Shown here: positions 4,092-46,592 of the stretch, piece by piece
Layout: every line of letters starts with the position of its first letter
Numbering within the stretch: position 1 is the stretch's first letter
Source: a virus
Lineage: Duplodnaviria > Caudoviricetes
IMG/VR virus record: IMGVR_UViG_3300021400_000193
Coordinates: 7,636-71,635 of that record
Length of the DNA: 64,000 nucleotides
Strand: one strand, 5' to 3'
Made by a program: the position numbers and the translations under genes
The notes under the pieces: generated by a model
The model's input: only the letters and a program-made list of their open reading frames with translations
What the model was told of the DNA's origin: nothing
Database searches by the model: none

Positions 4092-6098
4092 TTACAAATC
4101 AACTATTGTTTCTTCCTTGTTTTCCGTTTTAAGATGTTTTTCTTTATTTTGGTCAAACCATGAAACATCCAAACCTTTTAAACGAAGTTCTTCGATTTTA
4201 GAAAGGATATAAGAATTGCGTTCTGAGGAAGAACATTTTATATAAGTGTGTCCATAAATTTTAGATTTAGTATTCACTCTGCGATGTAATATTTCAAACC
4301 ATTCAAAATTAAAATGAAATTCATTCGTTTCAATACAACGAAACATTTCTGAATTTTTAGCAAGAGATTGTTTTAAATGACTCATGTATTTTATATCGTT
4401 TTCATCAATATTTCCTACTAATTCTTTCATATATTTTACAAATGAATATTTTTCATGAAAATAATAACGCATATGTTTATAAATTCCATTCTCATCAAAT
4501 TCACTTGATAAAATCATTTCAACATTATTTTCAATCATACAGTCATATTTTTCTTGCCAACTTTTCTTACGAAAATACGGTTTTCCATTTTCATCAAATT
4601 GAATATCACCTTTAATTTCAACCAATTTTCCATCTACCATAAAATCAACTTCATATCTTCTTTTCTTTCCAGTAGAGTCTAAATAATATAAATTTAATGG
4701 ATGATGTTTAATATCATGATTATGGTCTTTCATATAACAATAATAATATGCTTCTGCTTTCGAATCAAATTCCATGTTATTTAATTCTCGAACATAAACT
4801 TTATTTTGCCTTATACTAGGATACTTATCCATAAATACTTTCATCTTATCAGCGAATTCATAAGTATAATATTCACCATCAAATTCTTCAGAATTAGGTT
4901 TGAAATATTGGAGATAATTACTTAATTTATTTCGTGATATTTTTAGATAAATAGCAAATTTATTAAATGTTAAATGAGTTTTCTTTTTTAATGCCAATTT
5001 TCTTTGTCCATCTAAATATAATTTTAATATTTTTCTACTCTCATTATCATAAACATTTATATTTTTATATCTTTTAGGATTTAAGTTTAATTTATTACTT
5101 TTGATTGCGTTGGTTATCACATTAACAGAAACATTAAATTCTTTACATAATTTAGGCAACGTTAATAATTCAGGTTTTATTATTTCAGATATAACATTCA
5201 AATCTAATGCTTTAATAAAATTAAAATCTTCTCTAGTTATATAAAATATATTATGAATTTTTTCGACATTTATTTTATAGTGTGATGTCAATTTTAATAA
5301 ATTTTTAGTTGTTAAATTAAGAATATTGTTTAATTCTATAATTTTAATAAGACCATCTTCATTTATTTTATATGTTGAATATATTTCTTTATTATTAGTC
5401 AATTCTATTAATTTTAATTTAACCGATTTTGAACAAAATTCCAAATCTCCATATTTAATTGTATCTAAGTTATAAGTATTTATTACATCTTTTATTTTTT
5501 CTCGGTCTATGTGAAATTCTTTACTTAATTCACTAAGACTATAGCAATTATTTTTTATTTTAAATTCATCAACTTTAATGTTTACTTGATTTTCAAATTT
5601 TTCTTTTAATTTATCAGCATATTCATAAGTATAATATTTTCCATCAAATTCATCTTCTGTAGGAGGTAATTGATTTAATAGTGTATTTAATCTATTTCTC
5701 GAAACTTTTAAATATTTGGATAATGCGAATTTTGCTAATTTATTATTATTTATAGGTTGGTATTTGTTTTCATTTAAAAATTTTCTTAATACTTGTTCGT
5801 CATTTTCATTATAAAAAGAAAATCTACCTAAAACTAATGGATTGAATTTGATTTTATTATCATTATTTCTTCGTCTAACCCAATCAAAAGAAACATTACA
5901 TTTTTTACATAAATTATCTAATGTTGTGTGATTTTTATAAAATTCAGCAAGTTGTAAATATGAGTTATAATTTATACTAAAATTTCTACCATCTTTGGAA
6001 TATTCTATACCTAAATATTCTGATACTTTACGAATAGAATCCATACTAATTTTCCAATCTTTGGAAATTTCTTTAATTAAAAATACATCTTTTTCCAT
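4092..6098 (-). CDS. free-standing homing-endonuclease-like protein: repeated HTH-like units plus PD-(D/E)XK nuclease
   Basis: internal repeats (KFA..L..SRN.L...L.....EEFDG.YYTYE.ADK); nuclease motif FDSKAE...YEVDF..DGKLVEIKG. Confidence 0.75.
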   Translation of the reverse strand: MEKDVFLIKEISKDWKISMDSIRKVSEYLGIEYSKDGRNFSINYNSYLQLAEFYKNHTTLDNLCKKCNVSFDWVRRRNNDNKIKFNPLVLGRFSFYNENDEQVLRKFLNENKYQPINNNKLAKFALSKYLKVSRNRLNTLLNQLPPTEDEFDGKYYTYEYADKLKEKFENQVNIKVDEFKIKNNCYSLSELSKEFHIDREKIKDVINTYNLDTIKYGDLEFCSKSVKLKLIELTNNKEIYSTYKINEDGLIKIIELNNILNLTTKNLLKLTSHYKINVEKIHNIFYITREDFNFIKALDLNVISEIIKPELLTLPKLCKEFNVSVNVITNAIKSNKLNLNPKRYKNINVYDNESRKILKLYLDGQRKLALKKKTHLTFNKFAIYLKISRNKLSNYLQYFKPNSEEFDGEYYTYEFADKMKVFMDKYPSIRQNKVYVRELNNMEFDSKAEAYYYCYMKDHNHDIKHHPLNLYYLDSTGKKRRYEVDFMVDGKLVEIKGDIQFDENGKPYFRKKSWQEKYDCMIENNVEMILSSEFDENGIYKHMRYYFHEKYSFVKYMKELVGNIDENDIKYMSHLKQSLAKNSEMFRCIETNEFHFNFEWFEILHRRVNTKSKIYGHTYIKCSSSERNSYILSKIEELRLKGLDVSWFDQNKEKHLKTENKEETIVDL

Positions 6099-6167
6099 AA
6101 CGAGTTCTCCTATAAATTATCATATGCTATTACCGATAGCAATACAAATAGTTAATATTTTAAAATA

Positions 6168-6245
6168 AAAAAGGAACGAAGATTTGTGTTTTAGAGAACT
6201 CATTAAAGCACACGACTCGGTAAATCGTCATCTTCGTTCCTTTTG
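6168..6245 (-). ncRNA. structured dual-loop antisense-like RNA element, copy A
   Basis: 16-bp outer inverted repeat enclosing two hairpins; loops complementary to the RBS (6101-6109) and leader hairpin loop (6130-6136) of 4092..6098; U-tract follows on the minus strand. Confidence 0.75.
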
Positions 6246-6265
6246 GAATTAACTAATTATTTGTC

Positions 6266-7669
6266 TTAGCAAAATTCTACACCACAGAACGGACAAGCAG
6301 TTTCAATTCCGTCCGCCAACTCGTGATTACACTGAGGGCAAAGAGCAGTATCACCTTTGAACTTAGGTGAACCATCTTCATTTACACCAATGATAAATGA
6401 ACGGTCATTGTCTGTGAGTTTATCTACGAATGGAAGAACTGTACTCTTCAAACTCATAGGGTCAAACTTGGCAATTTTAGCAACTTTTGCTACCTTCTGA
6501 ATTGGAGCGGTTGGTGTAGGTTCTTCAACCTCACTCGGAAGTTCATCATCTTCTGAAGATTCTGTTTCAACTGTTTTCATAGAATCAAAATTTGGTGTTT
6601 CAGTTGAAGTTGTTTCTTCTGTAACTTCTTCATCTTCTGATTCTACTTCTGTAGAAGTATCTTCTGTTGATTCGGTTTCCTTTGTTTCGGATTTCTTGGC
6701 TTCCCATTCTTTCTTCTCTTTTTCAATCCATTCGGCAAAATCACTCTGAAGATTAGTACCAAAATCAATATCTGCTTGTTTGATGAGTTTACCAAGCACC
6801 TTGTTTACATAAGATGCTGATGTTGGACGAGAAATAAAAGGTATATCTTCCAACTTATATTTCTCATAATTTTCCTCATCTTCTGTAAGATAATTCATGG
6901 TTACTTTATTTGGGTCTAAACCAATCTGTGAAATCTTTGACTTTTCTTCAGGTGAGAAAATCTGAATCCAAGATTCACCAAGTTTCTTACTTAAACGCTT
7001 AACAACAACATCAAATTCGTCATACATACGATTAAGAGCAGTACACTGTTCATCGAAGATGTTGTTATAAAGACTTGGTTTGATTCCGTATGTTGGATAT
7101 TCAACGGTCTTTCCATCAACTTCCTTAGTTGTAGAATCCCAACAAAGAAGTTTTGTATGCTTATTTTCAGCGCACCAATTATCCGTCCTGTCAATACAGT
7201 TAAACAGATAAAATGTATCTGTCATCATGCCTTTTTCTGAAGCCAAACAATCTTCTGCTTTCTTACCGTTGTGGATAAATCTTTCGAATGAAGGTTTACC
7301 TTTATTGTCGAAAATTTTTGTCTTATTTTCTTTGTCGTATTTGTACTTACCAATAATTGTTCGCCATAACTTATTTACAGGATGGTCACGGTCCTCAGAC
7401 ATGATAATTGTAGTCCATTTATCATCATCAGTTTTAACGAACGCACGTTTTACAATAAGAGGGTCATAAACCGATTCACGCATGAGTGGTGAATTCCCCA
7501 CGAGTCTTAGAATTTTAGGAGTATCTTTTTTTAAGACGCACACCTTAAAATCAGGAACATCTTCTTTTGGAAAATCCCCATGTGATTTAGCCTGTTCGGC
7601 TTTCTTTTTTGCTTCTTGGAACTTCGCCAAGCGAGCCTTTGCCTTCTCTTCAGCACTTAACTCTGCCAT
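6266..7669 (-). CDS. putative single-stranded DNA-binding protein (gp32-like) with acidic linker and C-terminal Zn ribbon
   Basis: likely start MAELS with GAGGAG RBS; LRLVG and FNCIDR beta motifs, long acidic tract, CPQC..CPFC; replication context. Confidence 0.55.
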   Translation of the reverse strand: MAELSAEEKAKARLAKFQEAKKKAEQAKSHGDFPKEDVPDFKVCVLKKDTPKILRLVGNSPLMRESVYDPLIVKRAFVKTDDDKWTTIIMSEDRDHPVNKLWRTIIGKYKYDKENKTKIFDNKGKPSFERFIHNGKKAEDCLASEKGMMTDTFYLFNCIDRTDNWCAENKHTKLLCWDSTTKEVDGKTVEYPTYGIKPSLYNNIFDEQCTALNRMYDEFDVVVKRLSKKLGESWIQIFSPEEKSKISQIGLDPNKVTMNYLTEDEENYEKYKLEDIPFISRPTSASYVNKVLGKLIKQADIDFGTNLQSDFAEWIEKEKKEWEAKKSETKETESTEDTSTEVESEDEEVTEETTSTETPNFDSMKTVETESSEDDELPSEVEEPTPTAPIQKVAKVAKIAKFDPMSLKSTVLPFVDKLTDNDRSFIIGVNEDGSPKFKGDTALCPQCNHELADGIETACPFCGVEFC

Positions 7670-7799
7670 AATTTTTCTCCTCGACCATATAAAAATATGG
7701 TACTTCACGGTAATAAATCTATTCTTTGGTCAACGACCTATAATCCTAATATAGTTAGATTTATGTAATTTGTCAACATAAATCTAAAAATATTTTTAA

Positions 7800-8246
7800 T
7801 TACTTTCCGCTACTTCCAAATCCACCAACTCGTTCTTCGCTGATAGGGTCATCGTCTACTGTAATCAGATAATGTGTGAACATACCTTGTGCAATTCTAT
7901 CGCCTTTCTCAATGGTCTGTACTTCATCTGAAATATTACGCAAGAACACACCGATATTTCCATCATTCTTTTCATTAGAATAATAATCGCTATCTATCCA
8001 ACCTTGCGTATTTGCCAATTCCCATTTACCGCAGGCTGACGAACGAACATTAATCAATAAAATAACATCCTTATCCATTTCTGCCTTTACATCTGTCCAA
8101 ATCTTTACAATTTCATTTGGCTTTACTGTGTAATTTGTCTTTGCATAAAAGTCATACGCACCACTACCTTTTGTGGCACGTCTAGGTAGAGAAGTTTCTC
8201 CTTCAACTTTCTGCATAGGTTCAATTACTTCATGAAATTTAATCAT
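7800..8246 (-). CDS. dut: dUTPase (trimeric)
   Basis: GAYDF, RSS, GWIDSDY, RIAQG, RVGGFGSSG motifs. Confidence 0.95.
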   Translation of the reverse strand: MIKFHEVIEPMQKVEGETSLPRRATKGSGAYDFYAKTNYTVKPNEIVKIWTDVKAEMDKDVILLINVRSSACGKWELANTQGWIDSDYYSNEKNDGNIGVFLRNISDEVQTIEKGDRIAQGMFTHYLITVDDDPISEERVGGFGSSGK

Positions 8247-8366
8247 ATATTTCCTCCATATAAATATAATCTATTTCTTTTTAGATTTACCAAACATATA
8301 ACCCAATCCAAAAGAAGTCAATAATAAAATTAAAATAATCAAAACATCGTGATTCATACAATTTCC

Positions 8367-9146
8367 TTACAAATCAAACAAACCTTTTTCCAAATTATTG
8401 TTACTTGATTTTCCAACTGTGAATAATTTTTCAACTGCAATTTCACCTTTTTCTCTATCTGATTTTTGCATTACTTTTCTTTCTTTACTCCAAATACATT
8501 TGAAATCGGAAGGCATATAATATTCAGAAATGAAAACATAATTATTCTTTCCTAATTTTTTACACCAATCATAAAATAAATCATAAGGAAATCCATCTTT
8601 ACCATTATAAATTTTTGTATCTCTGTATGGTGGGTCTAAATAAAACAAACATTGATTAAAATAATTAGGGTCATAATCTTCAAAAGAATGTATACCAAAT
8701 TCTATTCCTTTCAATAAGGATGCTTGTTCTTTTGCGTATTCTAATCTCTCATGATAAATATTTCTTTTACCGCTAGGGTCTTTTCCATAACCACCATCGA
8801 AATATCTTCCGCCAAAACTAGCAAAATATCCAATTCCGCTTGTATAAGGAATAGAATATTTATTTGTTTTATTCTTTCTGTTTTCTCTTACATCAGCATA
8901 ATGCTCAAAAGAACAATCTTGTGGGAATACATCAAGATTAGGATTATCTCTCATATATTTCAAAAGTTCAATCAATTCGGAATTTATATCAGAACCAATT
9001 CTATTTTTACATTGAATATGGTCAATCATATTTGCCCCGCCTACAAAACATTCAATATAAGTTTCGATATGATTTTCATTTATACAATTCTGTAAAATTG
9101 GTAAAATATATTTTCTTAATTTTGCTTTACTTCCTTGATATATCAT
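8367..9146 (-). CDS. DNA adenine methyltransferase (Dam/D12 class)
   Basis: YQGSK, ECFVGG, YLDPPY; start at MIYQ preferred because of AGGAG RBS. Confidence 0.9.
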   Translation of the reverse strand: MIYQGSKAKLRKYILPILQNCINENHIETYIECFVGGANMIDHIQCKNRIGSDINSELIELLKYMRDNPNLDVFPQDCSFEHYADVRENRKNKTNKYSIPYTSGIGYFASFGGRYFDGGYGKDPSGKRNIYHERLEYAKEQASLLKGIEFGIHSFEDYDPNYFNQCLFYLDPPYRDTKIYNGKDGFPYDLFYDWCKKLGKNNYVFISEYYMPSDFKCIWSKERKVMQKSDREKGEIAVEKLFTVGKSSNNNLEKGLFDL

Positions 9147-9156
9147 ATTTCTCCTT

Positions 9157-9824
9157 TTACAAATCAAATAAATTAGTATTACTTTCTTCTATTCGTTTCT
9201 TAGCAATATTGTAATAATTTTCGTCTAATTCAACTCCAATAAAGTTTCTATTTGTATTCGCACAAGCAATTCCACAAGTTCCACTTCCCATACAAGTATC
9301 CAAAACCAAATCTCCTTTATTTGTATTATTTTCAACCAATTCAGTTATCAATTTTAAATTTTTTTGTGTAGGATGTACTTTACTTCCACCACAAGGATAT
9401 TCAAAAACATTTGATTTACAAAATGCATTAAATGTTTTCCAACCTTTAGGCTTAAACCAAACACAAAGTTCTACACCGCTTAAATAAATATGTTGACCGT
9501 TCATAGGAGAAGGATTCGTTTTTTTCCAAACAATACATCTAACAGTTCCTTCTTTTTGTGAAAAGAAATCATATATTTTTGAAAATTGTTTCATTCCACA
9601 AAATATACAAATGCTACCTTTACACACTCTATAGCATTGAATCAAAAACTCATCTAAATCAAATGTACAGACATCAGCATTTGTTTTATCTAATTTTCTC
9701 AACCCTTGTGATTTTCGATTAACTTCATCATAAGGAATGTCTGTGCAAATAAAATCAATAGATTTATCTTTCACCCCCCCATAAATTTAATACAATCATC
9801 GTTATATAATTTAATATCTGACAT
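9157..9824 (-). pseudogene. N6/N4 DNA methyltransferase frameshifted in a G7 tract (possibly phase-variable)
   Basis: MSDIKLYNDDCIKFMGG* then the other frame VKDKSIDFICTDIPY...HPTQK...DTCMGSG; one extra G restores colinearity with paralog 51702..52433. Confidence 0.85.
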
Positions 9825-9838
9825 TTTTATAACTCCTC

Positions 9839-10657
9839 TTAATCATCCCAAATATTTTTCATGGTTTCTTCTATTTCTTCCTTGGTGATATAATCTGAAT
9901 ACTTGTCTTTAAATTCAAATCTTCCGAATTTCGTCTCTCTGTCAAGCATGTCACCAAATAATTCTCCAAATTTACTTTCTTTCTGTTCTTCCATAGAATC
10001 GTTTGAAATAAACCATGTTGACTTTCTGACAACTTCAAGACGTTCTTTCAACCAAACAATAAGCAAACGTTCCTTGTATCCGCTCTGCCATAAACAACAT
10101 CTTTGTTCCTCGAATTCATCGATTACCAAAACATCAACATTTTTAATGTAATCTAACTTCTTTTTCAATTCTTCATCTCGTTCAGAATCATGAAGTAATG
10201 AAATCAAATCTTTAGCAAAAATGTAATAAACTGATTTTCCCTTGATTGCCAACTTTGTCAAAACACCTTTTGTAGTGTATGACTTTTGTGTACCTTGCCC
10301 ACCCCATACATAACAGTGTAAATGCTTAAAAGGTTTTTTATCTGAATCAAATTCTTCTACATATTTCTGTAACTTTTTCAGATTTCCGTTTTCATCTTTT
10401 CCACGATAATCAGACCAATCAAAATCAATCAGTTTCTTGAAATCTTCATAAGTAGAGTTTTCATCAAGTAATCCGCTTTTGGAAAGAATATTACTCGCTT
10501 TGAGTTCATATTCATATTTCATTCTACATGAACATTTCACTGCTGAACTCTCACCAACGATGAATCCATTTGAATCGCATTTATCACATTTTACTTCTGA
10601 AAACGGTTTTAAAATTCCCATATTATTCCTACATTTATAAAAAATTCTTTCCTTCAA
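9839..10657 (-). CDS. DnaC/IstB-like AAA+ helicase loader
   Basis: N-terminal CxxC..CxC, degenerate Walker A GGQGTQKS, Walker B VLVIDEF, ISN sensor. Confidence 0.75.
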   Translation of the reverse strand: MKERIFYKCRNNMGILKPFSEVKCDKCDSNGFIVGESSAVKCSCRMKYEYELKASNILSKSGLLDENSTYEDFKKLIDFDWSDYRGKDENGNLKKLQKYVEEFDSDKKPFKHLHCYVWGGQGTQKSYTTKGVLTKLAIKGKSVYYIFAKDLISLLHDSERDEELKKKLDYIKNVDVLVIDEFEEQRCCLWQSGYKERLLIVWLKERLEVVRKSTWFISNDSMEEQKESKFGELFGDMLDRETKFGRFEFKDKYSDYITKEEIEETMKNIWDD

Positions 10658-10710: not shown

Positions 10711-10995
10711 TTAAAAGAAAATTATAATATCATTAATTATATCATATTCTATCCAAAACAAAGGCAACTTACCTTTATCAGCATCTACTCTAATAGAGAG
10801 TTTGTTTTTATCAATTTGAATAACTCCTCCACAATCAGCACGTCTTACTGTAAAAATAATATCTTCCAAATTATCTAGTTGAGTCAAAGAAAGATATAAC
10901 TGATTCCAATATTTAAAATCTTCATTATTGTCTTTAATAAAAAATTCATGGTCTGAATATTTTAATTTACTTTGTGCTATTTCTAAATTATTCAT
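10711..10995 (-). CDS. hypothetical protein
   Basis: 94-aa ORF with RBS. Confidence 0.55.
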   Translation of the reverse strand: MNNLEIAQSKLKYSDHEFFIKDNNEDFKYWNQLYLSLTQLDNLEDIIFTVRRADCGGVIQIDKNKLSIRVDADKGKLPLFWIEYDIINDIIIFF

Positions 10996-11125: not shown

Positions 11126-11192
11126 GATTGAAAGGTTAGACAGAACTAGGATATTCTATCAATAGGTTGACCGCCTATCATTCCTTTCAATC
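11126..11192 (-). ncRNA. structured dual-loop RNA element, copy B (no cognate leader hairpin found)
   Basis: outer stem gattgaaagg/cctttcaatc, two inner hairpins (8-nt and 7-nt loops), U-tract then TAACTAT on the minus strand. Confidence 0.7.
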
Positions 11193-11886: not shown

Positions 11887-11899
11887 AATTTATTTTCTC

Positions 11900-15244: not shown

Positions 15245-15276
15245 AAAAGCACCAAGTTTATTCTTGGTGCTTTTTT
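15245..15276. terminator. bidirectional intrinsic terminator
   Basis: aaaagcaccaag...cttggtgctttttt between convergent genes. Confidence 0.8.
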
Positions 15277-15277: not shown

Positions 15278-17497
15278 TTATTCATAAATTACTTTCGTAG
15301 TTCCACAATCATAAATTCTATATATCTTATTTTCTTTCATTATTTCATGTTCCGTTTTATTTGAATCATAAAATTTCAACTCACCTCTTTCAAACATTTT
15401 TTTAATTTTATTCTTTCGAAAATGAGATTTATGAACTCGTCTACCATTTACAACATATGAATAAGAAGGACTATTTTCTTTAACAATCTTAAATCCACTC
15501 TCAATATATCCTTTTCCATTAAACCACGCTTTGTATACATAACTTGTGATTGATTTATATTCAATAAAATTAGAAATATGTTTCATTAACTTGCTGAATC
15601 CACCAACAACTTGAGTGTTTAATTTTGTAACCATTCTCGTAAGTTCTACATTCCCATCGTGCCAACCTTTCTTATTTATACAAACGCATTGTACAAGTTC
15701 ATCATTAAAAGTAAGACCCAAATATAAATCACCATAAGCAAAACCTTGTAAATGATTTTCATCGAAGAATATCTTTGCTTGGTCTTTTTCAATTTCCTTT
15801 ATTTGACATTTACGAGCAAAAATCTTTTCTTTGTAAACACCAAGTCTGCTTGCAATCATAGATTTCACAATTTCTTTATGTTCCAACCAATCATCTTCAA
15901 AGACATGAATTAAATCTATCCCTTTTTCATTACACATATTCGTTTTTACAAGATGATAATTTTTATCAACATGATTTTCATCATGCCAATGCAAACCGTT
16001 ATATTCTATTGCGAGTTTCATTTTAGGAATATAAATATCTAATTCCTTTGGTGAAATTATTCTCTTTGTATTTTCCATAACTTCATCGGAACATATTGAT
16101 TTTACAAAGTCAACTAATTCTTTTTCAGAATAAGACTTTCCACACGCATCAGTTTTTGAAAAGAAATCAGATAAGATTGGTAAATCCGATTCATTTATAT
16201 AATAATGTTCATCTCGATTAAAACGCACAACGGATATATTTAATCTTTCAACCGCATTCAATATGGTTTTGTCATGTCTATTAAATTTCATTGATAATTC
16301 GTCAACTGTTAATAAATTCTGAGATTTTGCAAAATTTATTTTATTTTCTTTTGTAATTTTCACTTTGTTCAAAACTTCGTTACTATATAACGGATGTTCA
16401 ACACCATAATTATTCAATAAAGTTTTTCTTGCTTTATCTTTAACTTCTTTTGTTAATATGGGATATTCCACTCCCCATTTTTTCAAATTAGTATTTTTTG
16501 TTTTTTCTTTTACTTGTTTACTTTGAGTAGCGTGTTCTTTTCCATATCTTTCAAGATTTGTCTCTTTAATTTTATTTTTCACATTTTCATTTTGAGAAAT
16601 AAATTCTACACCATAAACTTTGAGATTTGTATATTTTCGTTTTTCTTCAATTTCTTTTAACTCTGCTTCGGATTTAGAATTCCAAGTTTCAGCACATTTT
16701 TCACCATTAGTATAAGTTTCATCTCCATATAATTTTAATTTTGTAGATTTAATTTTATTTACAAATTCTTGAATTTCTTCTTCTGATTTATTATACCAAG
16801 ATTGTTTCATTTTATTAGCGATTTCTTCATTCTGTGTTGGAACTTCTACACCATATTTCAATAAACTAGTTTCTTTACGTTTATTTACAATTTCTTCGAT
16901 TTCTTTATCTGTTTTTGATAACCAAGTTTGAGATGATTTTTCCGAATTATTATAAAGTTCATCTCCATATCGTTCAAATTTTGTTTTCTTTGCTTTTTCA
17001 GCACTAGATTTGTGTGCTTTTTCTACAGAACCAAAATGTTTAATTTGAGTTAATTTATTCTTTTCAGAATTATTATAATTTTCATCACCATATCTTTCCA
17101 ATTTAGTCGCTTTACTTTGTTCAAGTCTTGATTCTTTATTATTTTCCCAAGATTTTAAGTTTGATTCTGAAATCTTTTCTTTATTAACATAATTTGGGTC
17201 TCCATATCTTTCCATTTTTGTTTTGCGAGATTTTTCATTCTTTTGTTTATAAAAATTTTCAAGACTTCCGTATTTTTCAATACGACTCATATCTCTAAAA
17301 ATAATTTCTTTATTTGGAGTATTTTTTACAAAATCTTTAATTTGATTTACTTGTTCATCAGAATAAACATCTACTTCTTTATGTGCCTTTTCATGATACA
17401 TTTTTTTAGATTCTAATTTAAGATATTTTATTGTATTTTTAACTGTAGAATCTGATAAATTTAATAAACTACAAATTTCCTTTTTAGTATAATTCAT
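15278..17497 (-). CDS. Hef-like free-standing homing endonuclease with (K/E)TxLERYG repeats
   Basis: many T.LE(R/K)YG repeats; ELDIYIP..LAIEYNGLHWH nuclease; IFARKC...NHLQG...IYDCG tail; start MNYTKK preferred by RBS. Confidence 0.85.
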   Translation of the reverse strand: MNYTKKEICSLLNLSDSTVKNTIKYLKLESKKMYHEKAHKEVDVYSDEQVNQIKDFVKNTPNKEIIFRDMSRIEKYGSLENFYKQKNEKSRKTKMERYGDPNYVNKEKISESNLKSWENNKESRLEQSKATKLERYGDENYNNSEKNKLTQIKHFGSVEKAHKSSAEKAKKTKFERYGDELYNNSEKSSQTWLSKTDKEIEEIVNKRKETSLLKYGVEVPTQNEEIANKMKQSWYNKSEEEIQEFVNKIKSTKLKLYGDETYTNGEKCAETWNSKSEAELKEIEEKRKYTNLKVYGVEFISQNENVKNKIKETNLERYGKEHATQSKQVKEKTKNTNLKKWGVEYPILTKEVKDKARKTLLNNYGVEHPLYSNEVLNKVKITKENKINFAKSQNLLTVDELSMKFNRHDKTILNAVERLNISVVRFNRDEHYYINESDLPILSDFFSKTDACGKSYSEKELVDFVKSICSDEVMENTKRIISPKELDIYIPKMKLAIEYNGLHWHDENHVDKNYHLVKTNMCNEKGIDLIHVFEDDWLEHKEIVKSMIASRLGVYKEKIFARKCQIKEIEKDQAKIFFDENHLQGFAYGDLYLGLTFNDELVQCVCINKKGWHDGNVELTRMVTKLNTQVVGGFSKLMKHISNFIEYKSITSYVYKAWFNGKGYIESGFKIVKENSPSYSYVVNGRRVHKSHFRKNKIKKMFERGELKFYDSNKTEHEIMKENKIYRIYDCGTTKVIYE

Positions 17498-17552
17498 AAT
17501 ATCCTCATCCTTAATTTCATTTCTGACCATTGGTAGTGGTCACATTAAATAG

Positions 17553-17619
17553 TAAGAGTTAGATAGAAACGGATGAAGTAGTTTCTATCAAATGTGCTAC
17601 CAACACATCTGTCCTCTTA
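17553..17619 (-). ncRNA. structured dual-loop antisense-like RNA element, copy C
   Basis: loops complementary to the RBS (17503-17510) and leader hairpin loop (17530-17536); TTGATT-N17-TACTCT promoter at 17653-17625. Confidence 0.75.
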
Positions 17620-17690: not shown

Positions 17691-18899
17691 TTATTCTTCG
17701 TTCGCCTTTACATTCCAAATCGGCTTTATAATTTTCAAAACTTCACAAGTATCTCCAATAGTTTCAAGAATCTGTTCCATAGGTTTGTAAGCCATGGGTG
17801 ATTCATCTATAGTTCCTACACAAACAGAAGTTGTGTAAACATCTTTCATTGACTTCTTGAAATCTTCCATTTTAAGAGATTCTTTAGCCATAGAACGTGA
17901 CATAAGACGACCTGCACCATGAGGAGCAGAACAATTTCTATCTTCGTTTCCTTTACCTTTTACAATTAAAGAACCGTCAGCCATGTTCATAGGAATAATT
18001 GCAATTTCATCTTTGTATGCTGAGATAGAACCTTTACGAATAATCTTATTTTTAATATCTACATAATTATGAACTGTACAGAATTCATCAAGAATATGTT
18101 TCTTCTTAATATTCAATGCTTTACAAATTTCATCTTGCATAGCCTTTCTTGACCAATAAGCAAAATTTTGTGCAATTTCCATATCATGTAAATATCCTTT
18201 CAAATCTTCACCTTCAAGATATGCAAGTTCATTTGGAACTTTTTCAAATTCTAGTTTATCAAGTTCAGACTGAATTTCTTTTTCACGACCTTCTCTCTTA
18301 AGTCGTTCAATGATTTCAGTTTTTTCCTTGATGTGATTTTTATGATATTCGATTGCTTTATTCTGCCAATATTTACAAACTTCAATTCCTAAATGTCGAG
18401 AACCGCTATGAATTACAAGATAATAATTCCCTTCTTTATCGATATCTAATTCGCCAAAATGATTTCCTCCACCTAATGAGCCAAGAGCAAGTAATTCTTT
18501 TTCTTTGTTAATTGGTGTAATAATATTATCGAGATTTATATTTTCGCAGAATTTATGTTTTGTACTTCTGTGTGCCATTCCCATAGGAATGTTCGCTCGC
18601 CATACTTTATCCAAGTTTTTTAAATCAAAATGAAAATCTTTAGATATTTTAAGAACTTGCATTCCACAACCAATATCTACTCCAACCAAATTTGGAACAA
18701 TTTTATTAACAATTGTTTGAGTAAAACCAATTACACATCCACTTCCTGCATGACAATCTTCCATAATTCTGATTTGTGAACCTTCTGAAAATTTCTGATT
18801 CAACAAATTCAAAATCTGTTTATAACACGCTTCTTCCAACTTGTCATAATCATCTACGAAAACTTTAGCATTGTTATATTTTCCTTTAATTTCAATCAT
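17691..18899 (-). CDS. rtcB: RtcB RNA 3'-phosphate ligase
   Basis: DCHAG, VGVDIGCG, GSLGGGNHF, HSGSR, HNY, HGAGR, DESPMAYK. Confidence 0.95.
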   Translation of the reverse strand: MIEIKGKYNNAKVFVDDYDKLEEACYKQILNLLNQKFSEGSQIRIMEDCHAGSGCVIGFTQTIVNKIVPNLVGVDIGCGMQVLKISKDFHFDLKNLDKVWRANIPMGMAHRSTKHKFCENINLDNIITPINKEKELLALGSLGGGNHFGELDIDKEGNYYLVIHSGSRHLGIEVCKYWQNKAIEYHKNHIKEKTEIIERLKREGREKEIQSELDKLEFEKVPNELAYLEGEDLKGYLHDMEIAQNFAYWSRKAMQDEICKALNIKKKHILDEFCTVHNYVDIKNKIIRKGSISAYKDEIAIIPMNMADGSLIVKGKGNEDRNCSAPHGAGRLMSRSMAKESLKMEDFKKSMKDVYTTSVCVGTIDESPMAYKPMEQILETIGDTCEVLKIIKPIWNVKANEE

Positions 18900-19204: not shown

Positions 19205-19513
19205 ATGAGATTTAAAATAACAAGTGTGGGTTTTGGCGGAGATTTAGAACCTTTTATGCGAGGTTTAAAAAATTATGAAATTTTTGGCGAAAATGCTCTT
19301 CTTGATACATTAGAAATTGCTGATAAATTTTTATCATTTTCTAAAATAGGTTTTATTGATGGCTATGAAGATGATATCGAAATTATAGTATCAAATAAAA
19401 ACGGAGATTATATAGAATTTAAAATAGACGATGGAACGGATGAAGATTATCAATATATTTTAGATTTAATCAAAGATGCTTCTAATTTAAATGTAAAAGT
19501 TAAAAAATATTAA
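19205..19513 (+). CDS. hypothetical protein
   Basis: 102 aa, GAGG RBS, TAACTAT upstream. Confidence 0.7.
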   Translation: MRFKITSVGFGGDLEPFMRGLKNYEIFGENALLDTLEIADKFLSFSKIGFIDGYEDDIEIIVSNKNGDYIEFKIDDGTDEDYQYILDLIKDASNLNVKVKKY

Positions 19514-39954: not shown

Positions 39955-40117
39955 ATTATCTTCTCCTATCTAAATAAAATAGTTAATAAAATTTCTTTTA
40001 TTAAGATAGTTAAGATAGTTATTGTTTGAGGAAAAATAGTTTTTGGTGTGTAAATTATTCAATCTTTTTTTTATAAATTTTAACTATCTGTATTGATATG
40101 AACAAAGGTATATACGG

Positions 40118-42259
40118 ATGCGGTATATACTGAAAAATCCAAGCGTAAGGGAGGTGAACAATATGCAACAACAAGAATTAAATAATCTTATCGACATGGA
40201 AAAAGATATAATTTCGCACCCAGCAGATGATTTGCATTACTTGGATAATATATTAAATTCTGATTTATTTACAGAATCAGAAGTTGAAGATATTAATTCG
40301 GCATTGAGTATAATTTTACATAATGAAAAATTATCTGAAAGAGAAAAAGGGAATCTTCTTGAAAACAGTTGGAAAATAAATCATAAATTCAAACCGCCAA
40401 CAGTAGAAGAATTTTTAACAGAAGAATGGATTGGACCACAAGCGAAAGAAGTTTTTCCTCATTGTAAAGAAACTTTTATTAAATATTTTGACCCATCTGT
40501 AAATAAGAACACTTTAATTACTTATTGTTGTACTTAGATTGGTTGGGGTAAATCTACGCTCTTGGCTATGATTAAATTTTATAGAGCGGTTCTTACAATA
40601 TCTTATAGAAACCCAAAGCAGTATCTTAAATTGGGTGAAAGTACACGTTTAACAGACGCTACAATTTCTTTTACTAAAGGGTCTGCTTATGACCTTGTAA
40701 TAAAAGGACTTGACAGTTTATTACAAACATCTCCGAAATGTCAAAAATTGCATTATGAAAGAGATATGACCAATCCTGAATATACAGAAAGTGGAAAAAT
40801 ACTTTTTTGTAATACTTCTAAAGGTAACTCTATTTTGAGAGTTGGTGATATTTTTTACGATTGTATTTCTGAACCCATTCAACTCGTAGGTAGAAACCTA
40901 ATTTCAGTTTCCGCCACTGAACTTTCTTTTTTGAAAGAAGTTATGCCAGAAGAAAAAGTTATGAAACTTGTAGATGAAATGTTTTCTCGTGTTCATAACC
41001 GTTTTGGATATAACAATCCCAATGTTTCATTAATTGTAGATTCATCTCCTAACTCTATGGAAGGATTAGCCGACCAATGGATTGAAAAACATAAAAATGA
41101 TAAAGACAAATTATTTATTAATGATAAAAAATGGGAACTTCCTACATTTTCATGGATGTTTCCTATATATGAAAAAGATAAAAAAAATAATGTATTTCCT
41201 ATCTTTAAAGGAACTTCCACTCAACCTACAAAAATCATTACAAAAGAAGAAGTTAAAAACTTTAATGAAGAAGACATTATTTGGACACCTAATGACCTTT
41301 ACGAACTTGCAAAAGATAATGTAACAAAGATTATGCGTGATTTTGGTGCAACTCCAACCGCAGGTTCTGATACAAAACTCTTCACCAATCACGAATTGAT
41401 TGAAAAATGTTTCGTGCCAAATCTTAAAAACTTTTATATGTTTGAATATGCAAGTTATTTATTGTCACCTGAAACATTATTGTGGGATAAAGTCAGGCCT
41501 TTATTCTATGTCTACACAGGAAAACAAAATTCTTTCAGATTAAAACGTTATCCTTCTGCTGAACGTTTTGTTCATATCGATATGGCTGAAACGAAAGATA
41601 TGGCTGGTATTTCTATGGTACATCTCGAAACAGATAAAATTGGAAGAAAGATGTATGTTGCCGATTTTACTTTACCAATCATGAGTAAAAAAGATGATAA
41701 GATAAACTTGGATAGTTTTAAATATTTAGTTTATTGTATGAAGATTTACGGAAATACCAATATCAAAAAAGCAACATATGATGGATTTGAATCAAAAAGT
41801 TCTATTCAATTTTTAGAAAGAAATGGTATTGAATGCGAAAGATTATCATTGGATTCAACACCTGATTATTATTTGTCATTTGCTAGTTGGGTAATGCAAG
41901 GACGAGTAAAAATCGGTAAAAACTTGGTTATGAAGAATAACATGAAATCTTTAATCACGACAAACGAAGGTCATAATGGTAAAGAAAGTAAGAGTGGAAA
42001 ACTTATTGTAGACCATGTTCAAGGTGATTGGATAGATTTGGAAAACTCTGATTGGGAAAAATCAAAATGTGGTTATTTTGGAAAAGATTTGTCAGATTCA
42101 TTCGTTGGTGCTTGTACAAATGCTGATAAAAGTAATGTAAATTACGCTACATTCTTATACGATGATACTGATGAAAAAGAAGATTGTTCACAAAAAAATG
42201 AAAAGAAACTCCAAGATGAACTGTATGAAAAATTCGGCTTAAAGTTTAAGAAAAGATAA
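40118..42259 (+). CDS. terminase large subunit, interrupted by one in-frame TAG at 40535-40537
   Basis: 40118..40537 and 40562..42259 share a frame; read-through gives YCCT*IGWGKST (Walker A), ATELSF (Walker B), VDSS, HIDMA and KDLSDS nuclease motifs. Confidence 0.85.
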
Positions 42260-42271
42260 AAATTATTAAAA

Positions 42272-42508
42272 TCAACAATCTTCCCATCCGCACAAAACAC
42301 AATACCATTTATAATAATTATGTTTTGTCAGACAATTTGAATTATGGCAACTAGGGCATATCATGGGATTTTGAATCCAAGTGTTTGATGTTCTTGAGTT
42401 TCTTTTTCTACTACCATCATCAATTACCACATCTCTATAGGTATCGTTTCCTATGATAGAAACTGTGTTATATTCATATATCATACATTTCTCCTTTTTA
42501 CAAGACAA
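42272..42508 (-). CDS. small Zn-ribbon protein
   Basis: CPSC...CVLC. Confidence 0.5.
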   Translation of the reverse strand: MSCKKEKCMIYEYNTVSIIGNDTYRDVVIDDGSRKRNSRTSNTWIQNPMICPSCHNSNCLTKHNYYKWYCVLCGWEDC

Positions 42509-42637
42509 TCACCTTTATATAAAATAACATCTGACATTTATTCACCCTCTTCATTTTTTACCGTTAGGGAATAATTTGTACAATTTGGGTTAATTTCGTA
42601 CTCAATTTTACCGATAGGTAAAATTTCAATTCTAATT

Positions 42638-43666
42638 TTATGTCCAAAAAATTTCATCAGATTTATTGTTTGATAATTTTCGAATCGCCTTATCAATAGA
42701 CATTGTATGATTTATATATTCTTGAATTTCTTGTAATGTGCAATCGTTCATATCAAAACCTTTAATTTCTGAACCCTTTTTATAAAATTTTGGACAGAAT
42801 GTTGCTCTTAAATTTCCCACATAACCTTCTTTTAATTTTTGAGCCATGAGTAATCCGCCATCATCATTATCTAAAAAAACAAGAAGATTAGGTATTTTAT
42901 TTAACATCCTCATTTTTATATCTGTGATTTGATTTCCAAAAGTAGATATGACGTTTTTGTTTACAGTCCAGCATTTTCCGATATTCTTTATTCCTTCAGA
43001 TAAAATTACTTCTTTATTCAAGTCAATATCATCGATTCCATATATCAAATTACTCGAACAACCTTTTACATATTTTACTTTTATAGGATTATCATCAAAT
43101 GTTCGACATTCATAATTCACAAGTTTTCCGTCTTTATAAATCGGTATGCAAATTCTGTTCTCCATAACTGTCGGCTTTTCATCAATATCATTTACAATAT
43201 TTTCACCAATCATCTCACAATATCGACAATACTTTACACCCTTTTCTTCAATAAACTCATCCGACCAACCGATTCCATGCAAGAAATTCATAACTTTATT
43301 ATCATAAAAAGGGTCGTAAAGTTTTCCATAAACAATTGGTTTAGTATACACGATTTCTTCTTTCTTTGGCTTCAGTGATTTAGCAAATTCATAATTTACA
43401 TCACCTTTATATTCCAACTTTTCACCGAGTAATTTATTAAATGAAAATATATTTACTGCACAACCGCAACTAAAACAATGACCAACACCTTTAATCGTAT
43501 CAAAAGAAAACGAACCTACGTGTTTATCATTATGATTAGGGTTAGGACATAAACATAAAATTTTATTTCCTTTCTTTTGATATTTTATACCATGAGTCAA
43601 TAATAACTGTTCAACATCTTGAATCATAAAAAATCCTTGCTTTATATTCTGCAAGGATTTTAACAC
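42638..43666 (-). CDS. DNA primase (Zn finger plus TOPRIM)
   Basis: CPNPNH..CFSC, RICIP, KY, SEG, LDNDDGG; start probably MIQD near 43627. Confidence 0.88.
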   Translation of the reverse strand: MLKSLQNIKQGFFMIQDVEQLLLTHGIKYQKKGNKILCLCPNPNHNDKHVGSFSFDTIKGVGHCFSCGCAVNIFSFNKLLGEKLEYKGDVNYEFAKSLKPKKEEIVYTKPIVYGKLYDPFYDNKVMNFLHGIGWSDEFIEEKGVKYCRYCEMIGENIVNDIDEKPTVMENRICIPIYKDGKLVNYECRTFDDNPIKVKYVKGCSSNLIYGIDDIDLNKEVILSEGIKNIGKCWTVNKNVISTFGNQITDIKMRMLNKIPNLLVFLDNDDGGLLMAQKLKEGYVGNLRATFCPKFYKKGSEIKGFDMNDCTLQEIQEYINHTMSIDKAIRKLSNNKSDEIFWT

Positions 43667-43712
43667 ATTTTGTATTAAACTTTCAATAATTTTATAAATT
43701 TTTTAATTAAAA

Positions 43713-43973
43713 TTATTCATCATTTTCAATTTTATCTTCTACAACTTCTGTTTTCGATTCTACAACATCCGATTTGATTACAAGGTATTTCTGCATAGGA
43801 ATAATCTTAGCGAATTCATCTACAGTTTCGATAACAGTATCTTTATATGTATAAAGTTCAACATTATTATAAACCACCTTATCTTGATTTGCAGGATTTG
43901 GCTTAATCAATCTTACTTTAATAGGATAAACTCTTTTATCGTTATTTGTTGTTTTATAATTTTTCTTTGCCAT
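43713..43973 (-). CDS. hypothetical protein
   Basis: 86 aa, AAGGAG RBS. Confidence 0.65.
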   Translation of the reverse strand: MAKKNYKTTNNDKRVYPIKVRLIKPNPANQDKVVYNNVELYTYKDTVIETVDEFAKIIPMQKYLVIKSDVVESKTEVVEDKIENDE

Positions 43974-43984
43974 AATTTATCTCC

Positions 43985-45064
43985 TTATTTTTTGAATGGT
44001 TTACAAATTTTATCAAATCTGTTCCAAAAGTCATTTTCCTTTTTAACAAATGTTTTGTCGTCAGCAATTGCCATTGCTTCCCATGCATCAAGAAGTTCTT
44101 CATCTTTCTTTGCGATATCAAGAACTTTTTTGAAGTTTTCTTTTGCAACATAATCTTCTGATTCCAATGTTTCTTCAAGCATGTCTAACATATCACCAAG
44201 TCCATCTACTTCTTTTTCTGTAAGGGATTCTGTGATTTTATTATCTTTTAATATATTTTCAAAAGCATAATAAATTGCATCTTTTTTGAAAGATACATCG
44301 TATTCTAACAAATCACCTTCACCTTTAAGTACATCAGTTACAACATAAGCATATTCTTTAGGACTAACTTCACCGAAAATAAATGTCTTGTCTTTTCCGT
44401 TATTTTTTACAATTACATTTTTCTGAAAAACATGTTCGATAAATCCATACTTGGTATTATATCCGAAATGGAGATTATCTACATCAACATAAGGTTTTAT
44501 ATCATCTTCCGATTCATTCAATTCTGTCTTATATTTGTTGATAAAATCTTCAATTTCATCGTCACTGTAGTTTGTGCCAAGTTTGTTTAATTCAGCCTTG
44601 ATAAACTCGAATCTTTCATGTTCATCTGTGATTTCTTGTGCTTTATCCCAAATCTCCGTTGGTAAAAAGTCCAACTTCTCTTTCAGTGTAATCAATGTTC
44701 CTTTTGAAACAATGTTTCCTTCAATAAGGTAATTTTTTGTAAGTGTTATAGTTTTCATTTTGTTATTCTCCATTAATTTCTTAAAATCTTCAGCCGTATA
44801 AGGTACACGACTTTTCCATACATTGATTTTATGTTCTTCGTTATCAGAATTTGACACCATGCTTAAATATGTTCCCACCTTTGCAGAACGACATTTATTG
44901 TTATTTTCACCATCCTTTGCTTTAATGCGTCTACATACTTTTTTAATATCTTCGATATCACCTTTTACAAAATATGAATTCTCACCATCAACAGTGATTC
45001 GCCAATTATTATCATCTGTATGAGCGATTGTTATAGGAATCAATCTTTTATTTTCATCTGCCAT
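43985..45064 (-). CDS. putative internal head polyprotein
   Basis: TAACTAT upstream; LKE/LNES/ITESLTE linkers; internal MKTITLTKNYLIEG motif. Confidence 0.5.
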   Translation of the reverse strand: MADENKRLIPITIAHTDDNNWRITVDGENSYFVKGDIEDIKKVCRRIKAKDGENNNKCRSAKVGTYLSMVSNSDNEEHKINVWKSRVPYTAEDFKKLMENNKMKTITLTKNYLIEGNIVSKGTLITLKEKLDFLPTEIWDKAQEITDEHERFEFIKAELNKLGTNYSDDEIEDFINKYKTELNESEDDIKPYVDVDNLHFGYNTKYGFIEHVFQKNVIVKNNGKDKTFIFGEVSPKEYAYVVTDVLKGEGDLLEYDVSFKKDAIYYAFENILKDNKITESLTEKEVDGLGDMLDMLEETLESEDYVAKENFKKVLDIAKKDEELLDAWEAMAIADDKTFVKKENDFWNRFDKICKPFKK

Positions 45065-45128
45065 AAAAATTTCTCCAATTTACAAAATAAATAGTTAATA
45101 TAAATTATATAGTTAAATTATTACTCTT

Positions 45129-46454
45129 TTACAAATTTATTTGAAAATATTTTTTAAGTTCTTTTTCGATAGTTTTATAATTTTTAAGTCTTAAAAGGTT
45201 AATTCCATTATTTTTACAATAATTCGTTTTAATTTCATCATGTCTTTGAACATAATTTAATTTTTCTTTTGCTTGTTCATCCGTCATTTCTTTACTTCGC
45301 TTTATGGGTTTAAAATGACCTTCTCCATCAAATTCTATACATAAATTATAAAGTGGTATGTAAAAATCAAACGGTAATTGTCGTTCATCTTTACAATCAT
45401 TAAATTTCTTTTGTTCTTCAAATTCTATTTTACATTCTGTTAAAAATTTTCTAATTGCAATTTCACCTTTATAATTATTACATTTTGGACATCCTTCTCC
45501 GCTTACATGATTGTTAGGTTGTTGTGGAAAATCACCATGTTTTGGACAAGTTATAATTACATCTGTATACATATTTATATAATTTACTTTAGAATAATCA
45601 TATGTTCCGATTCCGTGAACTTCGTTCGCTCTTTCTATAAATTCTTCTAAAGTCAAATTATATAAAGTTGCTTTCTTTTCTTCCCAACAATCAGGACAAC
45701 CTGCACCTTTAAAATGATTACTAGGTGTTTGTGGAAAATCACCATGTTTTGAGCAAGTTATAATTACCTCAGTTTTATAATTTGTGTAAATAACCTTTGA
45801 ATAATCATAAGTTCCTTTACCATGAATTTTATTCGCCCTTTCTACAAATTCTTTTAAATCTAATTTTTGAGTTCCGTAACAAATAGGACAACCACTACCA
45901 TTTAAATGACTGCGAGGTTTTTGTGGAAATTCGTAAGGTTCATCATGATTTGGACAGATTATAATCACCTCTGTATCATTATTTACATAAATAACCTTAG
46001 AATAATCATATCTTCCTTTATCATGTATCATATTGGATTTTTCTATAAATTCTTCCAAAGTTAATTTTAATTTTTCATGACATTTTATATTTCCACAAAG
46101 TTTACAACCTTTGCCACTCAAATGATTACTTGGTTTTTGTGGAAATGGTTTATGACCCTCAACTCTACAAATTATTTCCACATCAATTTTTGCTTTTACA
46201 TAAATCACATTTGAATAATCATACCTATTGCCATGTTTTCTTAAAGCCTTTCTGATGAAAGTTTTTGTTTTGTCGTCTTTGTTAAAATATCTTTCATTAA
46301 TAATTTGTTCGATTTCTTCTTCAGATAATTTTGGATATTCAACGATTTGATTTTTCAAATCTACATTTTCAGCAGAAACACATTTTTTACAATTACAATT
46401 TTCTTGATTAATTTTTGTCTTATCATAAGACATCATTCGATTCATTAAATTCAT
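45129..46454 (-). CDS. homing-endonuclease-like protein with Zn-binding repeats and a Vsr/DUF559-like nuclease
   Basis: four repeats of FI.(K/R)A...H...YDYS.V.Y......V.I.C..H..FPQ.P..H..G.GC..C; LPFDFYIP...IEFDGEGH. Confidence 0.82.
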   Translation of the reverse strand: MNLMNRMMSYDKTKINQENCNCKKCVSAENVDLKNQIVEYPKLSEEEIEQIINERYFNKDDKTKTFIRKALRKHGNRYDYSNVIYVKAKIDVEIICRVEGHKPFPQKPSNHLSGKGCKLCGNIKCHEKLKLTLEEFIEKSNMIHDKGRYDYSKVIYVNNDTEVIIICPNHDEPYEFPQKPRSHLNGSGCPICYGTQKLDLKEFVERANKIHGKGTYDYSKVIYTNYKTEVIITCSKHGDFPQTPSNHFKGAGCPDCWEEKKATLYNLTLEEFIERANEVHGIGTYDYSKVNYINMYTDVIITCPKHGDFPQQPNNHVSGEGCPKCNNYKGEIAIRKFLTECKIEFEEQKKFNDCKDERQLPFDFYIPLYNLCIEFDGEGHFKPIKRSKEMTDEQAKEKLNYVQRHDEIKTNYCKNNGINLLRLKNYKTIEKELKKYFQINL

Positions 46455-46528
46455 AAATCTAATCTCCTATAAGATAATTTTAATTTTTAAGTCATCGTCA
46501 CTGACTTCATATTAAATAGTTAAAAAAA

Positions 46529-46592
46529 GAGGTGTGATTGAGTGAGATTAGTAACTCAATCAACGTATAGGGTGACGACCTATACTCACCTC
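46529..46592 (-). ncRNA. structured dual-loop antisense-like RNA element, copy D
   Basis: perfect stems; loops complementary to the RBS (46459-46466) and leader hairpin loop (46495-46501); U7 tract. Confidence 0.8.

Follow-up and report, generated by a model that had tools for sequence, protein, structure and literature searches.

Four three-way-junction elements and their genes

The 64-kb window analysed here (the whole 64,000-nucleotide stretch) belongs to a 71,635-bp viral contig of 29% G+C (IMG/VR record IMGVR_UViG_3300021400_000193; CheckV completeness 41%) from an uncultured gut myovirus-like phage, which encodes a tail sheath gene (phrog_23). The minus strand is the coding strand of most genes in the window, and a crude map of open reading frames (ORFs) assigned 87% of the window to coding and 13% to non-coding DNA. 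We examined four elements of 62-76 nt, all on the minus strand, that fold as three-way junctions (3WJs) and are named E1 to E4. Each is followed by a promoter-like motif of the TAACTATTT type, and in E1, E2 and E3, the complete copies, a leader hairpin, a Shine-Dalgarno (SD) sequence and a gene of mobile type come next. This layout, running from the 3WJ to the ribosome-binding site (RBS) and ATG, had been described at three genes in an earlier note made from the sequence alone, and it was present at all three places. In each complete copy the two hairpin loops of the 3WJ are complementary to the leader loop and to the translation start region of its own gene. As argued below, these elements probably act as cognate antisense modules that repress the gene that they accompany. 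The features are as follows.

6173..6240, minus strand: E1 3WJ, outer stem of 11 bp, then U6 at 6172-6167; -23 kcal/mol, z -3.9
6223-6217 and ~6203-6191, minus strand: E1 loop 1 (UUACCGA) and anti-SD segment, respectively
6146..6154, minus strand: putative promoter motif TAACTATTT between E1 and its leader
6096..6141, minus strand: E1 leader, hairpin at 6141-6125 with loop UCGGUAA at 6136-6130, SD GGAGAACUCG at 6110-6101 and ATG at 6098-6096
4092..6098, minus strand: gene 1, 668 aa, multi-helix-turn-helix (HTH)/NUMOD1-like
11126..11192, minus strand: E4, an orphan 3WJ, outer stem of 10 bp with U6; -24.2 kcal/mol, z -4.9
11173-11167, minus strand: E4 loop 1 (CGGUCAA); loop 2 of E4 is UAUCCUAG
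17553..17619, minus strand: E2 3WJ, outer stem of 6 bp, no U tract; -20.3 kcal/mol with the short outer stem included
17603-17597 and 17580-17571, minus strand: E2 loop 1 (UUGGUAG) and loop 2 (UACUUCAUCC), respectively
17547..17555, minus strand: putative promoter motif TTACTATTT between E2 and its leader
17495..17542, minus strand: E2 leader, hairpin at 17542-17524 with loop CUACCAA at 17536-17530, SD region GGAUGAGGA at 17510-17502 and ATG at 17497-17495
15278..17497, minus strand: gene 2, 739 aa, homing-endonuclease family protein
46601..46610, minus strand: promoter-like TAAACTATTT, 8 nt upstream of the E3 outer stem
46529..46592, minus strand: E3 3WJ, outer stem of 6 bp, U7 at 46528-46522; -24.6 kcal/mol, z -5.7
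46578-46572 and 46553-46544, minus strand: E3 loop 1 (UCGUCAC) and loop 2 (UACUAAUCUC), respectively
46514..46522, minus strand: putative promoter motif TAACTATTT between E3 and its leader
46452..46507, minus strand: E3 leader, hairpin at 46507-46489 with loop GUGACGA at 46501-46495, SD/spacer GAGAUUAG at 46466-46459 and ATG at 46454-46452
45129..46454, minus strand: gene 3, 441 aa, endonuclease family protein with a treble-clef zinc finger

Structures were folded with RNAfold, duplex energies were obtained with RNAduplex, and z-scores are relative to shuffled sequences. None of 200 shuffles was as stable as E1, E3 or E4, and the same three elements ranked near the top, by stability, of the two-hairpin junctions that an unbiased sliding-window scan of the whole genome gave for the minus strand. 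E2 is without a U tract because the promoter motif overlaps the 3' strand of its outer stem. E1, E2 and E4 each lie directly after the stop codon of an upstream gene. The whole window gave no match to Rfam 15 at gathering score, and a hammerhead or other ribozyme and a HEARO/omega RNA were rejected on this ground; ARAGORN found no tRNA in the window, and a tRNA-like element was likewise rejected. No close relative of the phage was found in INPHARED by megablast of positions 4000-8000 or by tblastn of the tail sheath.

The three downstream genes had been described as unrelated nuclease genes, and endonuclease family matches were obtained for two of them. Gene 2 matched the homing endonuclease family phrog_3339 (1.9e-117) and DUF7487, with ~34% identity to the annotated Hef homing endonucleases of Campylobacter phages. 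Gene 3 matched the endonuclease families phrog_559/681 (at E-76 and E-71) and has a treble-clef zinc finger. The two genes share one weak local match only (E 0.008 for the pair). Gene 1 gave no match to an endonuclease family; Pfam returned weak, sub-threshold NUMOD1/HTH matches, PHROGs and PDB returned nothing, and an atlas lead scored 0.83. In the neighbourhood of gene 2, a perfect 12-bp bidirectional terminator hairpin (15245-15274) separates it from the convergent tail sheath gene, and an RtcB-type RNA ligase is encoded at 17691-18899 on the minus strand (Pfam 1.5e-56), with relatives at 88-93% identity in other viral contigs.

Both loops of each complete element match the leader downstream

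Loop 1 is the exact 7-nt complement of its own leader-hairpin loop in all three complete copies, as the earlier note had stated. Its description of these segments as 7-nt loops was accurate for the complementary segments and less so for the folds: RNAfold adds an A-U pair that shrinks the E1 leader loop to 5 nt, and it partly closes loop 1 of E1 and E2. The target 7-mers are rare, with 2-6 occurrences each on the sense strand of the 71.6-kb genome, and the chance of finding one in a given 120-nt stretch is therefore ~0.003-0.01 per element.

The other loop is predicted to pair over the SD of its own gene. By RNAduplex, loop 2 and the translation start region form 13 bp in E1 (-18.3 kcal/mol), 9 bp including one G-U in E2 (-11.2 kcal/mol) and 8 bp in E3 (-9.3 kcal/mol). 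For the orphan E4, no partner of loop 1 was found near any gene start; loop 2 can pair over 6 nt with UAGGAU at the SD of a 94-aa ORF (10711-10995).

Both helices covary in relatives of E3

The gene 3 protein has relatives in IMG/VR at 62-63% identity, whose genes are preceded by the same layout with loops of other sequence. Relatives' loci were gathered from IMG/VR, JGI metagenome contigs and GTDB genomes with the leader-flank pattern AGTCA-N7-TGACTTAAAAAYTAAAAT, in which the seven loop positions were free. The pattern fixed the leader stem and the next 18 nt and left the stems and loops of the 3WJ unconstrained. One locus, L047, was excluded before counting; it matched only a shorter 21-nt leader pattern, has no hairpin and adjoins a tRNA-like sequence. 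Collapsing identical copies left 15 distinct loci including E3 of the window, 14 of them evaluable, as L054 is truncated at the contig start. The relatives tested are thus of the E3 family; alignment A1 comprised 13 loci, the specificity matrix 15 elements and the promoter survey 17 elements. A 16-mer from the 3' side of the 3WJ was found at 22 IMG/VR loci, of which 20 were unrelated chance contexts and two were the known L045 and L048. No related loci were found in IMG/VR for gene 2 or gene 1. The gene 2 protein has many homologues (P0004-P0023 at 83-93% identity). At the gene 1 site, the 480-aa upstream protein has relatives at only 25-26% identity.

The exact reverse complement of the leader loop was found in loop 1 of the upstream 3WJ in 14/14 evaluable loci, at a distance of 68-103 nt (13 loci measured). 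These comprise 10 distinct loop pairs in the E3 family, or 12 when E1 and E2 are counted. Within alignment A1, all seven pairs of the kissing helix had changed on both sides, and all 91 cells were Watson-Crick with no G-U. The anti-SD helix showed changes on both sides at 5/7 pairs, with 84.7% of cells paired, a shortfall due in part to the alignment of loops of differing length. Clear compensatory cases were L056 and L064, with 10/10 complementary positions each, L053 with 8/8, and one C/G to U/A exchange that separates L024 from the window. Over the whole structure 93.4% of cells were paired, compared to 83.6% in column shuffles (0/500 reached the observed value, a count that is not a probability because the rows are related loci) and to 32-43% when the partners were slid by 1-3 columns. 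A stronger argument than the shuffle count lies in how many distinct loop pairs are compensated.

The pairing was also specific. Cognate loop 1 and leader loops matched at 7/7 positions in 15/15 elements, compared to a mean of 3.65/7 for non-cognate combinations; the 10 of 210 non-cognate combinations that reached 7/7 were all between loci with identical loop sequence. Duplexes of loop 2 with the start region averaged -9.4 kcal/mol for cognate and -4.9 kcal/mol for non-cognate partners. The kissing columns differ at 0.45 per site, compared to 0.18-0.27 in the 3WJ stems, and yet stay fully paired, a hint that the loop sequence may be under selection to change. Covariation of both loops with the leader loop and the SD had been set beforehand as a check on the proposal in the earlier note, and both loops do covary, loop 1 with the leader loop and loop 2 with the SD/spacer. 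Collectively, the observation stands and exceeds chance by far, and the comparison among relatives strongly supports both predicted helices.

One of the relatives, L088, is a 3.4-kb contig in a metagenome-assembled genome titled uncultured Lachnospiraceae. The module is present on it as well (loop pair UUGCGAG/CUCGCAA), a weak pointer to Lachnospiraceae as the host group, and the contig may equally be a phage fragment binned by chance.

The elements form one diverged family that moves with its genes

A covariance model built from 13 members of the E3 family recovered E4 with 39.5 bits (E 5e-7); among its hits in the window, E2 came fourth, at 17.9 bits and E 0.11, and E1 seventh, at 15.3 bits and E 0.48. 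The model found no convincing copy in the window beyond E1-E4, and none new in 35 loci beyond the training set. The claim that the elements share no sequence was thus overturned: judged by this model, E2, E3 and E4 are divergent homologues, and the window elements are best described as one diverged family rather than as unrelated sequences.

Relatives that lack the module show what has been inserted. In contigs whose RtcB is 88-93% identical to that of the window (L004-L006), RtcB runs straight into another gene, with neither a 3WJ nor gene 2. L036 is an empty site for E3 and gene 3, with the 90-aa gene of the window, one promoter motif and then a gene whose product begins 'MADE...'. Compared to L036, the window has gained the 3WJ, the promoter motif, the leader and gene 3, and the promoter motif now flanks the insertion on both sides. 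From these empty sites it follows that 3WJ, promoter motif, leader and gene are inserted as one cassette. L049, L050 and L052 carry one cassette type, and their upstream flanks are unalignable from just before a TAACTAT core. The module also precedes other ORFs, namely a treble-clef zinc-finger protein in L057 and an ORF in L064. A search for relatives of the gene 1 site, to compare presence and absence there, gave none.

E4 is homologous to the 3WJ in front of a gene 3 homologue in L026, and both occupy the same genomic position. Since E4 resembles the L026 element and lies after a gene ending in the same residues, it is probably the relic of a lost cassette, which would have kept its anti-SD loop and lost its kissing partner. 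Decay may also be seen in L050 (924-1295), where the ORF behind an intact module ends after 123 aa and endonuclease-like sequence continues beyond the stop; this looks like a decaying copy in which the paired loops are retained.

A putative promoter motif separates each element from its predicted target

The motif TWACTATTT occurs 16 times in the window, compared to 5.2 expected, and none of 100 shuffles reached 16. The wider form T[AT]ACTAT[TC]T has 26 sites in the window, 24 of them intergenic. It is found in the correct orientation at divergent strand switches (12505+, 19160+, 40081+ with 40012-, and 51389- with 51503+), and in related contigs the same motif lies before ordinary genes. Judged by this distribution, T[AT]ACTAT[TC]T is a gene-start motif and probably serves as the promoter for a class of phage-directed transcripts; the copy between element and leader most likely acts as a promoter too. 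A scan for the sigma-70 consensus (124 sites, 107 expected) was uninformative in this AT-rich DNA. T[AT]ACTAT[TC]T often occurs in tandem pairs, with further sites for example at 19511+, 19547+, 39985- and 45097-. Hairpins that would lie promoter-proximal at the 5' end of a transcript also follow TAACTATTT at 3643-3664 (-) and 53517-53550 (+), with no 3WJ upstream; a 5' stem-loop therefore seems general in these putative transcripts, perhaps for stability.

In the survey of 17 elements, the motif sits between the anti-SD element and the SD in every case. A further core, [AT]ACTAT, starts 15-26 nt before the outer stem in 11/17 elements, ten of them at 15-19 nt, against a background of 0.026 per 40-nt window. 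This spacing approximates that of the inner promoter motif to the leader hairpin, so that one transcript would begin with the 3WJ and another with the leader hairpin. At least six U follow the outer stem in most copies, and these tracts are on the sense strand only. E1 (11 bp + U6), E3 (6 bp + U7) and E4 (10 bp + U6) look terminator-like by eye; a consensus scan for terminators, which allows loops of only 3-8 nt, does not list them. Upstream core and U tract together have the anatomy of a gene for a small RNA of ~80 nt, and such a separate RNA made from the 3WJ is plausible; some transcript should carry the 3WJ in every case. The number of promoter motifs varies: in a contig from metatranscriptome run X6, 37 extra letters at window position 46515-46522, between U tract and leader, add a second promoter motif as in L056, and promoter copy number is therefore polymorphic.

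A proposed antisense module and its alternatives

It is fairly probable, in our view, that each element is part of a cognate antisense module by which translation of the accompanying mobile gene is repressed in the manner of c4 of phage P1, both in trans and on read-through RNA. The 3WJ RNA would be made from a promoter ~10 nt upstream or as the 3' end of the mRNA of the upstream gene, would end in most copies at the U tract after the outer stem, and would present its two antisense segments in hairpin loops. The mRNA of the gene would start at the TAACTATTT promoter between 3WJ and leader. The 7 nt of loop 1 would form a fast and specific kiss with the 7-nt loop of the 5' hairpin of this mRNA, and loop 2 would then occupy the SD/spacer, excluding the 30S subunit. 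Read-through transcripts would be silent too, because the same contacts would form within one molecule. The small-RNA and read-through routes are both compatible with the data, and the promoter core in 11/17 elements appears to favour the small RNA. The earlier note had proposed an orthogonal repressor combining kissing loop and anti-SD loop; the cognate pairing scheme was borne out by covariation in relatives, and repression is what we infer from it.

A stronger version, which we regard as doubtful, holds that the 3WJ is a stable, separate small RNA serving as a trans-acting, cassette-specific antidote, and that the fast and strictly compensated turnover of the 7-nt kissing loops, with 12 specificities observed, reflects selection for orthogonality. 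Such orthogonality would be needed where one genome holds several cassettes and where phages co-infect. Every mobile nuclease gene would then come with an immunity RNA of its own, in analogy to P1/P7 heteroimmunity or plasmid incompatibility, and the family would amount to a natural library of orthogonal translational repressors.

Several points weigh against the c4-like module. The conservation of the leader stem and the following 18 nt is no evidence for it, because the search pattern fixed those positions, and the relatedness of the loci tempers the shuffle counts as noted above. The cognate partner does not give the best loop 2 duplex in 9/15 elements, because the SDs of the family are alike, and anti-SD pairing is weak (~5-7 bp) in L026 and L088. 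A U tract is lacking in E2 and reduced to 3-4 U in L049 and L052; with terminator strength so uneven, a discrete terminated small RNA cannot be general. An upstream promoter core is missing from 6/17 elements, and where present it may be a resident promoter beside which the cassette landed. Logan contigs from gut metatranscriptomes (X1-X3, X6; shares 0.06-0.20), whose ends and strand are unreadable and which have no bearing on transcription either way, are short, none usefully spanning the element. Finally, contacts within a single molecule alone account for the pairing no less well, which is the way in which T4 silences I-TevI. Under such cis-only silencing, which is possible but in our view unlikely, the 3WJ would never be a separate RNA; read-through RNA would fold back onto the leader loop and SD and block translation, and transcripts from the inner TAACTATTT promoter, which lack the 3WJ, would be translated, giving temporal control. 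The position of the promoter motif between anti-SD element and SD in 17/17 elements fits this well and reproduces the topology described for T4 I-TevI, segB and Aeh1 mobE (PMC2988022, PMC3014915). The weak or absent U tracts of E2, L049 and L052 likewise favour read-through, as does the position of E1, E2 and E4 directly behind a stop codon. However, the promoter core at a fixed short distance in 11/17 elements and the U tracts of mostly at least six residues resemble the anatomy of a small RNA gene, and a simple local hairpin would be enough in cis. In addition, sequence turnover in the kissing loops is about double that in the neighbouring stems and pairing is nevertheless complete, which is easier to explain by selected specificity between molecules.

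Other readings move the effect away from the ribosome. The antisense kissing complexes of CopA/CopT and hok/sok are cleaved by RNase III, and the complex of 3WJ and leader could similarly be a site of processing or decay, for instance by a double-strand-specific RNase, or could stabilise or activate the mRNA. We consider such a role in RNA fate improbable. Loop 2 pairs with the SD/spacer in every complete copy and covaries with it, which points to ribosome exclusion, and when the leaders are folded alone (RNAfold) the SD is unpaired or weakly paired, so they hold no stable SD-locking structure that pairing could open. Transcripts of T4 seg and mob genes are also controlled by processing (PMC2988022), a precedent in favour of this role. 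The inverted 7-mers and hairpins could also act in DNA, as protein-binding or single-stranded-DNA structures at an operator or a homing or recombination site. An operator bound by I-TevI overlaps the late promoter of its own gene (PMC2988022), and the promoter motif is duplicated at both cassette borders. Moreover, the wobble counts do not clearly choose a strand: with 21 G-U against 13 A-C cells in the 13-locus alignment, the original argument that G-U positions favour pairing on the sense strand turned out to be weak. A DNA-level signal nevertheless seems very improbable, given that reverse-complementary covariation spans 68-103 nt with variable spacing and always falls in hairpin loops, that the second partner is the SD/spacer of a gene and that the U tracts after the outer stem are on the sense strand only. 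Repression by the c4-like antisense module thus remains the reading that we favour.

Comparison with known systems

Homing endonuclease genes must stay nearly silent for a host genome to tolerate them. Their control has otherwise been described, in the literature searched, as local RBS hairpins, terminators, RNase processing and autorepression in T4-like phages. I-TevI, I-TevII, I-TevIII and segB of T4 and mobE of Aeh1 have RBS hairpins that form on read-through transcripts only, with the late promoter lying inside the structure (PMC2988022, PMC3014915). The module shares with these hairpins, as there described, the regulation of homing endonuclease genes and an inhibitory sequence upstream of a phage promoter, such that promoter-proximal transcripts escape. 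In contrast to the single local hairpin containing the RBS in T4 and Aeh1, the module places its anti-SD sequence 70-100 nt away, in one loop of a stable 3WJ of its own, with the promoter motif in the gap. A kissing loop would assist here, and the element has its own promoter core in 11/17 copies and a U tract in most.

Recognition through hairpin loops of ~7 nt, with the loop sequence setting specificity (as in plasmid incompatibility), is a feature of OxyS/fhlA, ColE1 RNA I/RNA II and R1 CopA/CopT. OxyS has two loops, one of which acts at the RBS, and is a distant, trans-encoded small RNA of the host. In ColE1 and R1, the strand opposite the target encodes a regulator that is complementary to it throughout; unlike regulators of the CopA/CopT type, the regulator and target segments found here are on the same strand, in tandem, 68-103 nt apart, and move together. 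In the type I toxin-antitoxin pairs tisB/istR-1 and zorO/orzO, a small RNA beside a potentially toxic gene pairs with a short stretch of the 5' UTR (untranslated region), and paralogous pairs are orthogonal. The small RNA in such a pair is encoded divergently, contacts its target through a single linear stretch of 18-21 nt and controls a small membrane toxin. Unlike such pairs, the module implies no addiction phenotype.

The nearest item in the literature searched is the antisense RNA CfrI, which links psbA to F-ChpI in cyanophage S-PM2 in a different arrangement (PMC12197685). A 3WJ/kissing module upstream of endonuclease genes is apparently not described in the literature searched, papers under subscription aside (among them PMC12197685, PMC3014915, PMC8201110, PMC2988022 were consulted). 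What appears new is a portable RNA module with two loops, a 7-nt kiss and an anti-SD segment, that is apparently unrecorded, is absent from Rfam 15 and travels with a nuclease gene. Its covariation is unusually clean, and it would bring c4-type control to a new setting, the mobile nucleases of an uncultured gut myovirus-like phage. The 12 natural cognate pairs offer material for studying how short kissing loops set specificity, and if action in trans is true, the set could be used as orthogonal riboregulators.

The closest system in plan is c4 of P1 and P7, the regulator of icd/ant. The Rfam C4 model (RF01695) scored 68.8 bits on the P1 record, used as a positive control (gathering score 45 bits), and gave no match to the window elements at E <= 10 in the whole 71.6-kb genome, nor on the E3 region. 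The window elements are therefore not members of the C4 family, though they share its plan. By its annotation, the P1 record contains a 77-nt C4 RNA, a target a2 of 7 nt that starts 4 nt after it and a target b2 of 8 nt that ends 10 nt before the start of icd. RNAfold predicts a 3WJ for c4, with b' in a hairpin loop and a' in a junction strand. The RNA is processed by RNase P. As described in a review, c4 blocks translation around the RBS, its complementary segments are probably in loops and it underlies the heteroimmunity of P1 and P7 (PMC12197685). The likeness extends from the structured RNA of ~77 nt with a 3WJ, placed upstream of its target in the same orientation, to the two short antisense segments (7 and 8 nt in c4) that pair with two downstream sites, the second over the RBS, and to the importance of specificity differences between relatives. 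Unlike c4 with its a' in a junction strand, the window elements carry both antisense segments in hairpin loops, and the first target is itself a hairpin loop, allowing a true loop-loop kiss. They further differ from c4 in the promoter motif between RNA and target, in the U tract that ends most copies, and in the regulated gene, which is a mobile endonuclease-type gene rather than an antirepressor operon. The earlier note did not recognise the motif and proposed a new system; its absence from Rfam agrees with the first point, and the c4 logic seen on the P1 record argues against a categorically new one. Since the logic is that of P1/P7 c4, we regard the elements as a new RNA family that puts a known plan to new use.

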